Below, piece after piece: positions 30,954 to 33,560 of a DNA stretch of 64,000 bases. The notes beneath the pieces were generated by a model. It was not told where the DNA came from, searched no databases, and worked only from the letters and a program-made list of their open reading frames with translations. The position numbers and the translations under genes were made by a program. How positions within the stretch are numbered: the first letter of the stretch is position 1; each line of letters opens with the position of its first letter. Where the stretch lies: the NCBI RefSeq assembly GCF_058153355.1, contig NZ_CM177019.1; one strand, written 5' to 3'.

Positions 30954-32909
30954 ATGATGTCCGTTAATGGTGATGTCCACACTATAATACTCAGATCTTC
31001 TACTACAAATACTACAAAAGACCTGTACTATGATGGAAACAAGATGCCACTGGCGGGTGTCAAAGCCATACTTGATACAAGTACCGGAGGATTTTCCAGT
31101 TGGGTCAAAAAGTTATTATATGCTATTGCTCATTTGTTAGGAAGCGAAAAAATTCCGAACAATGAGAATATGCGGGAAGGCATGGAATATCTTAAATTGA
31201 TTTTTAAAAGCGCCATTCAGGAAGAGAAGTACAGTTATGTCATCCGGGATGAGAGTGGCGAGGTTTATGTAGAAATAAACTTTGACCCGGAAGCGAAACA
31301 GTTGTTCATCAGTTGTGCCGGGGGGAACGAATCAATATGTTGTACAGAAAAAGAGTTTACAAACGTTAAACAAAACCTCATAGAAAAATATTGTCCGAGA
31401 AATTACCAAACGTCCTATGATCTGGTTGCGAACAAGCTTTACAGGTATGACATTTTAGAAGAGCTGATGGCTTGCGACAACAGGGGTGAGAGCATTTTGT
31501 TCAGGGCTATGCGGGACGGGGATACAGATTTGATTGAAAGCCTTCACCTGTCCGAACTTACCGGTAAAGGCGGACTCACCTCCAGTAAGATGCTAAAATT
31601 ACTGGAGGCGTCAAGCGAAGGGGGTACCCCGGGTTTGTATATGGCCATGAAGAACGGACGCTATGACATGCTGGATACAATACTGGGCTTGCTCGCCAAA
31701 CTGCCCGATAATTATAACATTAACAAAAATGATGTACTGAGGTTACTGAAAGCAAAAAACTCTGATCCGAGATCTAATTCGATTGAAGGGTTGGAAATTG
31801 CCATGACGGAAGGACATGATAAAATACTGATAACGATGTTGGAAATGCTTCCCGACGTGGTCAAGAGGTTTGGAATTACCAACGATGAGATGCGGGATTT
31901 AATCAATCCACGTAGGGGTGATGATCGCGCTTTGAGCAAAGCCATGCTTAATGGGAAAGAAAACATAGTGACCGCTATGCAACGGTTACTCCCCGACCAT
32001 GCCGAGAAATTACAACTCAGCAAAGAGGATGTCTTTAATATACTGTCTTCATTCAACGATAAAACTTCCCAAAACCCCTCGGGTTTATTTAAGGTCATGT
32101 CACATGGGAAGGTAAATATGCTGAAGTTCATGCTGGATAATCTCTGCGCGCTACCGGAGGAGGTATTTACCAAAGAGGATATTCTGGGTTTCCTGGCTGT
32201 AAAAAATGCGAATGGCATGACGGGGATGGCGCATGCTATGTCTTATGGTCATGTGGAAATAGTGAAGGCCATGCTGGACCGTCTTTGCTCGATGAAGGGG
32301 GAGTTTAATATTACCAAAGACTATGTCCTCAATAATATACTGGCTTCAAAAAACGGCAACGGCTGGACAGGGATATCTTTAGCCATAGCGCACGGACATG
32401 TGGAAATACTGAAGACCATACTTGACGCGCTCCCCATGCTGAATGATAAGTTTGACATTACCGGCGCGGATATACAAAAGTTTCTGTTTGCAAAAATCGA
32501 CGAAGACATCTCGGGTTGGACCAAAGGTATGGACAGAGGGAATAAGGACAAACTGATAAGCATGTACAAAATGCTGTTCGATAACATACTGATGGATAAT
32601 AAGTCAGATATTCCTGTTGATTTGCTGAGGGAATTAAATATTGTCAGCCATATTGTATTGACAGAAACTGGAAAACCAAAAACAGACGAAATAGCAAGGC
32701 AGTCTGAAACCAGCCTCACCTACGGACAACTCCGGCAATGGAGTGATCTGAGTGTACGGCGGGCGGCCAGGAGTTTAGAGGATTACTGTCGGAACCTAAA
32801 CATTAATGTGGACACTGTCAAACCCTACCTGACCCCAGACGGGCTTACTCCCCTCGGCGAAGAGATGCGGGATAATGTAAAAGTGCCGGGGCTCACTGTT
32901 GTGGGGTAA
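30954..32909 (+). CDS. Ankyrin-repeat protein resembling the ShET2/OspD3/EspL effector family
   Basis: 651 aa from ATG 30954 (six-frame ORF starts at GTG 30945); repeated modules matching ankyrin consensus (NGMTGMAHAMSYGHVEIVKAMLD; NGWTGISLAIAHGHVEILKTILD) with recurring FxITKxDVxxLLxAKN linkers; family call from memory. Confidence 0.7.
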   Translation: MMSVNGDVHTIILRSSTTNTTKDLYYDGNKMPLAGVKAILDTSTGGFSSWVKKLLYAIAHLLGSEKIPNNENMREGMEYLKLIFKSAIQEEKYSYVIRDESGEVYVEINFDPEAKQLFISCAGGNESICCTEKEFTNVKQNLIEKYCPRNYQTSYDLVANKLYRYDILEELMACDNRGESILFRAMRDGDTDLIESLHLSELTGKGGLTSSKMLKLLEASSEGGTPGLYMAMKNGRYDMLDTILGLLAKLPDNYNINKNDVLRLLKAKNSDPRSNSIEGLEIAMTEGHDKILITMLEMLPDVVKRFGITNDEMRDLINPRRGDDRALSKAMLNGKENIVTAMQRLLPDHAEKLQLSKEDVFNILSSFNDKTSQNPSGLFKVMSHGKVNMLKFMLDNLCALPEEVFTKEDILGFLAVKNANGMTGMAHAMSYGHVEIVKAMLDRLCSMKGEFNITKDYVLNNILASKNGNGWTGISLAIAHGHVEILKTILDALPMLNDKFDITGADIQKFLFAKIDEDISGWTKGMDRGNKDKLISMYKMLFDNILMDNKSDIPVDLLRELNIVSHIVLTETGKPKTDEIARQSETSLTYGQLRQWSDLSVRRAARSLEDYCRNLNINVDTVKPYLTPDGLTPLGEEMRDNVKVPGLTVVG

Positions 32910-33560
32910 GGCCCTGCACATCCCGTGGCCCCCTGCATGGCTAAAGCATGGAAAGCGGAAGAAAAAGCGCAATGAGGTCGTAGGACGAACGGTTCGGGGA
33001 AGGCTGAAGAGTACGTATCTGGTCCTGAAGACCGGATAAACCTTCATCGGTCCAACGTTTAAGCCACTTGTAGCCAGTGGCAGGAGAAATGCCGTAGTGA
33101 CGGACCCTGTAAATAATTCTGTGTAACTGCCCACGATTAAAGGTGGCCGCTCAGGCGGTCACCGTATTCGATAATAAATTGTGTGATTCATAGACATCGT
33201 TTCAATTTTCTCAGCTCAAGTTCAAGCTGGTTATTCTGTTCCTGTATATGCTCCTCATTGGGCTGATAGTTTGCGTGAACGGCATCAGAGTATGGCGTTT
33301 TCTTAGCAAGTTCAAAGTAGCGCGCCATCGGAGTTATCAGCCACCCACAGCTGGTCAGGATGTTCTGCCACGAACTGACGATTCACACAGTCGCCTGCGG
33401 CAACGACTTTCCTGCTGACTGTAAACAGAACGACGGTCGGCGGTGAAATAACGGTCTTTGCCCTCACCTACGCCATGGCCCAGCGCCCGGCTCATGTCGT
33501 ACATCACGTTAGTAGCCATCGCTTTCACGCAGGCATCCATTGCGGCGTCGTTCAAAACCA
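32900..33560 (-). mobile_element. Mosaic of degenerate IS transposase fragments
   Basis: Minus-strand frames give an HTH transposase N-terminus fragment (..HRIIYRVRHYGISPATGYKWLKRWTDEGLSGLQDQ..) and an IS3-family DDE-domain start (RQFVAEHPDQLWVAD..), separated by stops and frame changes. Confidence 0.5.

Follow-up and report, generated by a model that had tools for sequence, protein, structure and literature searches.

Results

Gene content of the locus and composition of the patch

We analyzed a 64-kb stretch of an Escherichia coli chromosome (hereafter the window) and examined an interval of 0.66 kb within it (positions 32900-33560), which an initial annotation made from the raw letters had described as a patchwork of insertion sequence (IS) fragments at a recombination hotspot. 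The gene order in the window is lsrR-lsrK, a deleted autotransporter gene, a remnant of hipA, an island of ~5.8 kb, the F9 (ydeQRST/Fml) fimbrial operon and ydeP. The interval is flanked on the left by the stop codon of the island's ankyrin-repeat gene and on the right by an AT-rich region that precedes the F9 major-subunit gene, the first gene of its operon (Table 1).

Positions 32965-33596 were found to consist of four IS fragments and one fragment of a hydrolase gene, all on the minus strand, with the IS fragments spanning three families: IS3, IS256 and, represented twice, IS481. Each IS fragment can be assigned to a known element, namely IS629/IS1203, ISEc18, ISEc39 and a relative of ISEc19, and these similarities are not due to chance. 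All four are remnants, and none has the intact transposase and the two inverted repeats that define a member element. Six-frame translation places the transposase-like peptides in three different minus-strand frames with stops between them, and there is no intact reading frame in the patch. A start codon and a catalytic core never occur together in one piece, and every element has lost at least one of its ends; thus, the patch is immobile and cannot encode a transposase. The stretch 32965-33596 is very likely a non-functional fossil that forms the right edge of a degenerate island (27625-33423) between hipA and the F9 operon. The initial annotation had reported at least two unrelated transposase pieces on the minus strand, lying in different frames with intervening stops, and this description proved correct. 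Its view of the whole interval as IS debris holds for the four fragments but not for the right ~135 bp (33424-33560), which belong to the hydrolase remnant, and two IS pieces had not been separated in it (ISEc18-like, 33180-33335; ISEc39-like, 33103-33179).

The pieces were identified by aligning the interval to annotated reference copies taken from public genomes, and occurrences were counted in a set of 5,426 complete E. coli genomes. Three of the pieces, namely the hydrolase remnant, the IS629-like fragment and the ISEc18-like tail, are too short for profile searches; with Pfam and NCBIfam they produced weak matches or none, so that alignment to reference copies was required. Beneath the interval, in genomes that share it, the NCBI Prokaryotic Genome Annotation Pipeline (PGAP) places three pseudogenes, named "helix-turn-helix domain-containing protein", "IS481 family transposase" and "alpha/beta hydrolase", plus a fourth, hypothetical one in a single genome; the IS629-like and ISEc39-like pieces are left unannotated. 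An Rfam scan of 32700-34100 detected no RNA family, and the spacer that separates the ankyrin gene from the first fragment (32910-32964) matched neither the four reference ISs nor any Rfam family. Moreover, no further copy or fragment of ISEc19, ISEc39, ISEc18 or IS629 was found in the rest of the window.

Table 1. Features of the patch and its flanks (window coordinates)
Feature	Position	Strand	Basis or remark
hipA remnant	26626-26802		Left flank of the interval; the F9 operon, from 34050, is the right flank
Ankyrin-repeat protein gene	30954-32909	+	Last intact gene of the island, converging on the patch; Pfam Ank_2, E = 5e-13; PGAP annotation in L001 and L005
Spacer, 55 bp	32910-32964		From ankyrin stop codon to first IS fragment
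IS481-family transposase fragment, helix-turn-helix/leucine zipper, codons ~31-76, related to ISEc19 (yagA)	32965-33102	-	tblastn, Pfam, NCBIfam, PGAP pseudogene
ISEc39-like IS256-family end, terminal 77 bp: last ~13 codons (FIIEYGDRLSGHL, then stop) and terminal inverted repeat	33103-33179	-	88% nucleotide identity
ISEc18-like IS481-family 3' end: codons 276-323, stop codon 33188-33190, right inverted repeat 33180-33204	33180-33335	-	Nucleotide alignment, tblastn, PGAP
IS629/IS1203-like IS3-family orfB internal fragment, 88 bp, codons 107-135	33336-33423	-	Nucleotide alignment, tblastn
α/β-hydrolase gene internal remnant, ~57 codons including the GICGWGG motif	33424-33596	-	PGAP pseudogene, phmmer, Pfam of relatives
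F9 (Fml/Yde) fimbrial major-subunit gene	34050-34613	+	Pfam Fimbrial, E = 8e-31; PGAP "fimA" in L001

Identity of the individual fragments

The leftmost fragment aligns with amino acids 31-76 of the transposase of ISEc19 (E = 1e-17, tblastn), an IS481-family element (yagA) of the CP4-6 prophage region of E. coli K-12, over its helix-turn-helix (HTH) and leucine-zipper part. It matched Pfam LZ_Tnp_IS481 (PF13011; 25.6 bits, cut-off 22.2) and HTH_23 (29.3 bits, above the gathering cut-off), as well as positions 21-62 of NCBIfam transpos_IS481 (NF033577; E = 2.5e-6). Compared with ISEc19, however, the piece is only 65% identical in amino acids and 75.6% in nucleotides and is truncated at both ends; a closer relative (77% amino acid identity) is an unnamed IS481-family transposase carried on E. 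coli and E. marmotae plasmids. Homology ends at codons 31 and 76, there is no match to the rve domain, and the window holds no more ISEc19-like sequence. An HTH N-terminus had been proposed by the initial annotation, and the HTH is indeed present, although it belongs to the IS481 and not the IS3 family and the piece, while near the N-terminus, has lost the first 30 codons and the start codon.

The adjoining 77 bp represent the end of an element like ISEc39 (IS256 family), whose relatives occur on Yersinia pestis pMT1 and on Klebsiella and Serratia plasmids. They match the ISEc39 end with E = 2e-21, whereas at the protein level only 16 C-terminal residues align (E = 2e-4), with FIIE(F/Y)GDRLS(E/G)HL followed by a stop codon as the shared C-terminus. 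Position 33103 is the true end of the element: homology begins at the identical nucleotide in four unrelated loci (L003, L008, L009 and L014), and in L014 an intact ISEc39 copy carries an 8-bp target duplication, AACTGGCG, flanking the same terminus. In contrast to the full element of ~1,320 bp, the piece is cut where the ISEc18-like end abuts; an intact DDE transposase and a second inverted repeat were not found, nor was any other ISEc39 match in the window.

The third fragment corresponds to the last 156 bp (positions 865-1020 of 1020) of ISEc18, an IS481-family element of ~1,020 bp found on E. coli F-type plasmids, with 92.9% nucleotide identity. Its right inverted repeat is identical at 25 of 25 positions, which makes 33180 the true end of the element, and its C-terminal 48 codons share 87.5% amino acid identity with the ISEc18 transposase (E = 3e-27, tblastn). 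This fragment is the "IS481 family transposase" pseudogene of PGAP. Compared with ISEc18 itself, ~85% of the element is absent, and with it the DDE core, the HTH and the left inverted repeat; the sole match to the left inverted repeat in the window is the right inverted repeat itself. Positions 33103-33335 could also be read as one IS481 3' end that carries an extended untranslated tail, with the IS256 copy of strain SMS-3-5 as an insertion into it; this reading was dropped because the ISEc18 inverted repeat ends at 33180 and a plasmid search showed the 77 bp to be an ISEc39-like end.

Next to it lies an internal piece of an IS3-family orfB with 89.8% nucleotide identity to copies of IS629, an element that, like IS1203, is known from E. 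coli O157 and Shigella. Its peptide, TVSRKVVAAGDCVNRQFVAEHPDQLWVAD, is 86% identical to amino acids 107-135 of IS629 OrfB (E = 1e-13, tblastn), includes the stretch RQFVAE.PDQLWVAD and terminates at LWVAD, whose Asp we take to be the first residue of the DDE triad; this is the piece named as an IS3-type DDE-domain start in the initial annotation. The NCBIfam profile NF033516 was matched weakly (positions 199-222, E = 0.017). Compared with the ~1,310 bp of IS629/IS1203, the piece is without orfA, the frameshift site, the inverted repeats and the catalytic core past the first Asp, and the window contains no match to OrfA or to other parts of OrfB.

The rightmost fragment is not IS-derived. In phmmer searches, this hydrolase remnant matched relatives of 322-372 amino acids at positions ~128-206, and the full-length relatives are assigned by Pfam to DLH, Peptidase_S15 or PETase-like families. 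A word-indexed protein search returned only other short remnants, and it was the exhaustive phmmer search that reached the full-length relatives. Nucleotide homologs (79-82% identity, from 33596 to ~33425) occur in L019, a contig of the fragmented assembly of strain P0001, and in L020.

Junctions and proposed order of events

Two of the junctions join a true IS terminus to internal IS sequence: at 33102/33103 the ISEc39-like end stands against codon 31 of the ISEc19-like piece, and at 33179/33180 the ISEc18-like right inverted repeat adjoins the ISEc39-like element at an internal position, 77 bp from its terminus. At least two others are internal on both sides (33335/33336, ISEc18 codon 276 against IS629 orfB codon 135; 33423/33424, IS629 codon 107 against the hydrolase remnant), and the left edge near 32964/32965, where codon ~76 of the ISEc19-like piece meets the spacer, is probably another such joint. 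Junctions of the former kind point to nested insertion and those of the latter kind to deletion, in agreement with the repeated insertion and deletion suggested by the initial annotation. The ISEc18/IS629 joint showed no microhomology with respect to both reference sequences; it is the sole IS-IS joint for which both parents were compared, the remaining joints missing a parental reference on one side.

Judging by these junction types, an ISEc19-related IS481-family element would have been in place first. An ISEc39-like IS256-family element would then have inserted into its codon 31, and an ISEc18-like IS481-family element would in turn have entered the ISEc39-like element, 77 bp short of its end, with an IS629-like IS3 element arriving nearby. 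Later deletions may have removed most of every element and created the ISEc18/IS629 and IS629/hydrolase joints. The patch is immobile and has been inherited passively with the island.

Several observations weigh against this account. The order of events is drawn from junction types only, and the 5,426 genomes yielded no intermediate, for example one in which an ISEc39-like or ISEc18-like element is still complete at this site. No terminus is preserved in the IS629-like piece, positions 32910-32964 are assigned to no source, and the IS names used here are the PGAP labels of the reference copies. Furthermore, a 77-bp ISEc39-like remnant identical to this one and with the same internal breakpoint lies near yjhR, which simple nested insertion does not explain, and the mosaic may have been either assembled in place or imported ready-made.

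Distribution of the mosaic and recurrence of the ISEc39-like end

Using an 801-bp query, we found the same mosaic at full length in 17 of the 5,426 genomes, with 97.5-99.6% identity. It is always linked to the island encoding leucine-rich repeat (LRR) and ankyrin-repeat proteins, both in these 17 genomes and in one metagenome contig (L016; 97.7% identity across the patch). Judging from the ranking of partial hits and a second search, the ISEc39/ISEc18 junction is present at no other locus in this genome set. The more than 1,100 matches of the query at ≥99% identity most likely reflect not this locus but the yjhR copy of the 77-bp piece, for which ~920 such matches were found in a second search. 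The patch is an old scar co-inherited in 17 genomes and is not evidence of current activity.

Two secondary deletions within the lineage have endpoints at the edges of the patch. In strain 2013C-4282, positions 32333-32970 have been deleted at a CAAT microhomology, truncating the ankyrin gene. In strain N96, a deletion runs from the remnant of an Xre-type regulator gene to 33423-33428, with AAA[A/C]AG as the microhomology. Since no other genome in the set of 5,426 has the N96 junction, N96 represents a derived, island-free state; the idea that its arrangement is common and ancestral was rejected on account of this uniqueness and of the shorter Xre gene that N96 retains in comparison with island-bearing strains.

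The ISEc39-like end recurs elsewhere. The copy beside (upstream of) the truncated yjhR helicase gene, present in ~920 genomes and located at positions 2501-2577 of L008, is 100% identical and has the same internal cut (±1 bp), with no ISEc18 sequence after it. Other instances were located at positions 1578-1654 of L003, as the end of the full, frameshifted copy of SMS-3-5, and at positions 2001-2060 of L009 (60 bp, 92%), where the stop codon of djlA directly precedes the fragment. The opposite end of the full ISEc39-like copy is separated by 40 bp from a decayed ISEc18-like copy in SMS-3-5, an arrangement shared by more than 1,000 further genomes. The shared cut and the repeated proximity of the two elements may be due to targeting of one IS by another, to transposition of a nested composite or to chance.

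The hipA-F9 interval as a hotspot

Homology with other lineages ends on the left just beyond hipA (26906) and resumes on the right at 33667. The content of this interval differed in every lineage examined, giving at least five contents among the annotated genomes. In L011, two tyrosine recombinases and proteins of 788 and 144 amino acids are followed by a type I restriction-modification system; the same two-recombinase module precedes retron Ec78 PtuAB and an ABC-three-component system in L013, and redox genes with Tn3 and hydrolase remnants in L012. The window, L001 and L005 carry the LRR and ankyrin proteins, and N96 has almost nothing. Tyrosine recombinases are confirmed in other occupants of the interval; in the window, only pieces of the conserved module are left, at 26954-28211 and 30057-30234. 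No integrase was found in the island of the window, and its five open reading frames (ORFs) of more than 100 amino acids contain no domain typical of known defence systems according to Pfam and NCBIfam, the PADLOC library not having been searched.

In L011, L012 and L013, the module beside hipA also includes an MbcA/ParS/Xre-type antitoxin and an Xre regulator, and its 788- and 144-amino acid proteins have no Pfam domains. This module may resemble multi-recombinase islands of the GInt/RIT-like kind.

The region between hipA and ydeT has been listed as defence-island hotspot #20, detected in 783 genomes and occupied in 62 (Hochhauser et al. 2023, S1 Table, PMC10121019), and the same region, 5' of the f9 operon, has been described as variable (Wurpel et al. 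2014, PMC3966885). Together with the lineage-variable cargo, these reports uphold the suggestion of the initial annotation that the junction is a recombination hotspot. The locus resembles hotspot #20 in its flanking genes, hipA and the F9 usher gene (ydeT), and in its strain-variable cargo. In contrast to the integrase-bearing islands of other strains, the occupant of the window has neither an integrase nor a recognised defence system; its cargo consists of the LRR and ankyrin-repeat proteins, and its distal edge is an IS scar.

Alternative explanations

The mosaic could have been built outside this locus, either on a plasmid or somewhere else in a chromosome, and have reached it already assembled, forming the distal end of the incoming LRR/ankyrin island. 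We regard such an import as possible but doubtful. It would fit the fact that the patch never occurs apart from the ankyrin island (17 genomes and the metagenome contig) and has no intermediate at the locus, the presence of ISEc18-like and ISEc39-like remnants as neighbors at another locus in SMS-3-5 and more than 1,000 genomes, and the 100% identity of the 77-bp end to the yjhR copy. However, the exact ISEc39/ISEc18 junction is known from nowhere else in the genome set, and two plasmid searches, with the ISEc39-like end and the ISEc18-like C-terminus, yielded no donor with the same mosaic. In any case, an import alters only where the scar formed and not its nature.

A different question is what makes the junction recombine. 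The IS fragments themselves might be responsible, through IS-mediated deletion or homologous recombination between IS copies. In favor of this, two independent deletions end at the outer edges of the patch (2013C-4282 at ~32971 and N96 at 33423-33428), and in several strains the F9 operon also carries insertions of IS1, IS3 and IS66 elements. Yet both deletions lie at short microhomologies unrelated to IS ends, no fragment has a transposase or two ends, and the other cargo variants share the two-integrase module next to hipA without such an IS patch. Moreover, the patch is found in only 17 of the 5,426 genomes, whereas the interval varies species-wide, so that a leading role for the IS fragments is unlikely. 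It is more likely that integrase-borne islands, and not these ISs, are the main source of turnover at the interval, because other occupants carry the two-tyrosine-recombinase module, of which only remnants are left in the window. These data suggest that the IS patch represents secondary decay on the margin of a single old occupant that can no longer move. A still bolder proposal, that the patch edges and the 77-bp end are preferred breakpoints and not passive debris, is suggested by the same 77-bp cut at yjhR, the neighboring ISEc18 and ISEc39 copies at a third locus and the two deletions near the outer junctions, and we consider it very unlikely; if true, it could mean that ISs are targeted into other ISs or that the sequence is prone to recombination and repeatedly gives rise to rearrangements. 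Finally, part of the patch might have been domesticated, be it the 46-codon ORF at 33188-33328 (the ISEc18-like tail), the HTH peptide, or promoter-like sites affecting F9 fimbriae. The conservation of the patch at 97.5-99.6% and a few promoter-like hexamer pairs in the region could be cited in its favor, but the flanking island is conserved to the same degree, as a result of recent common descent, the HTH piece has lost its start codon and first 30 codons, and the ORFs are annotated as pseudogenes. N96 has lost the entire patch and retains an intact F9 operon, no Rfam family was matched, and most of the promoter-like sites lie outside the patch in the AT-rich stretch 33600-33960. Domestication is therefore scarcely credible.

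Neighboring features

In the F9 operon of the window, an intact IS66-family element (35980-38445) splits the usher gene (35728… / …40856). It contains orfA (36054-36482), TnpB (36479-36826) and a DDE transposase (36846-38417), has the ends GTAAGCG…CGCTTAC, and is flanked by an 8-bp target duplication, GAATTTAT. Its TnpB and TnpC are 96.6-97% identical to those of ISCro1-like copies, and the orfA region differs. This insertion was present in none of the 5,426 genomes. The F9 fimbrial operon of the window strain is probably inactive. On the other side of the island, an autotransporter gene of the ECSE_1600 type (24122-26802) is reduced to internally deleted pieces and is fused at 26626 to the final ~177 bp of hipA; the strain lacks hipB as well as most of hipA.

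Within the island, the minus-strand ORF at 28610-29812 encodes an LRR domain of the YopM/IpaH/SspH type (PDB 4ow2, E = 2e-60; NCBIfam SspH2, E = 1e-31, LRR only). The NEL ligase domain was not detected in the window copy; a longer homolog in strain 24A16CRGN010 is named "NEL-type E3 ubiquitin ligase domain-containing protein" by PGAP, and the number of repeats varies among strains. The ORF looks like a type III effector, here in an island of a non-Shigella E. coli. The ankyrin-repeat protein (651 amino acids) also varies in its internal repeat number, with forms of 602 and 473 amino acids, and only three homolog clusters were found among 5.8 billion proteins, all from Escherichia or metagenomes. 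Its gene is paired with the LRR gene in an island of ~37-45% GC. Upstream of the ankyrin gene lies an HTH pseudogene that does not come from an IS but represents the N-terminal part of the island's Xre-type regulator (30057-30234, 27550-28211); the Xre regulator gene is split by the LRR-carrying segment, and a 63-bp stretch (30057-30119) is duplicated on either side in related strains.

Discussion

In this study, a stretch annotated in RefSeq as three or four unnamed pseudogenes was dissected with base accuracy, and this dissection dates the island as old and immobile. The patch is an ordinary IS graveyard at a published hotspot, and the hotspot reading itself was already established. With regard to annotation, the HTH and "IS481 family transposase" pseudogenes derive from two different IS481-family elements, and unannotated IS256-family and IS3-family fragments lie between and beside them; a reader of the raw sequence had correctly recognised the IS debris. 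The greater biological interest lies outside the patch, in the LRR and ankyrin-repeat cargo and in the exchange of integrase-borne defence cargo at hipA-ydeT across the species, the latter having already been published.

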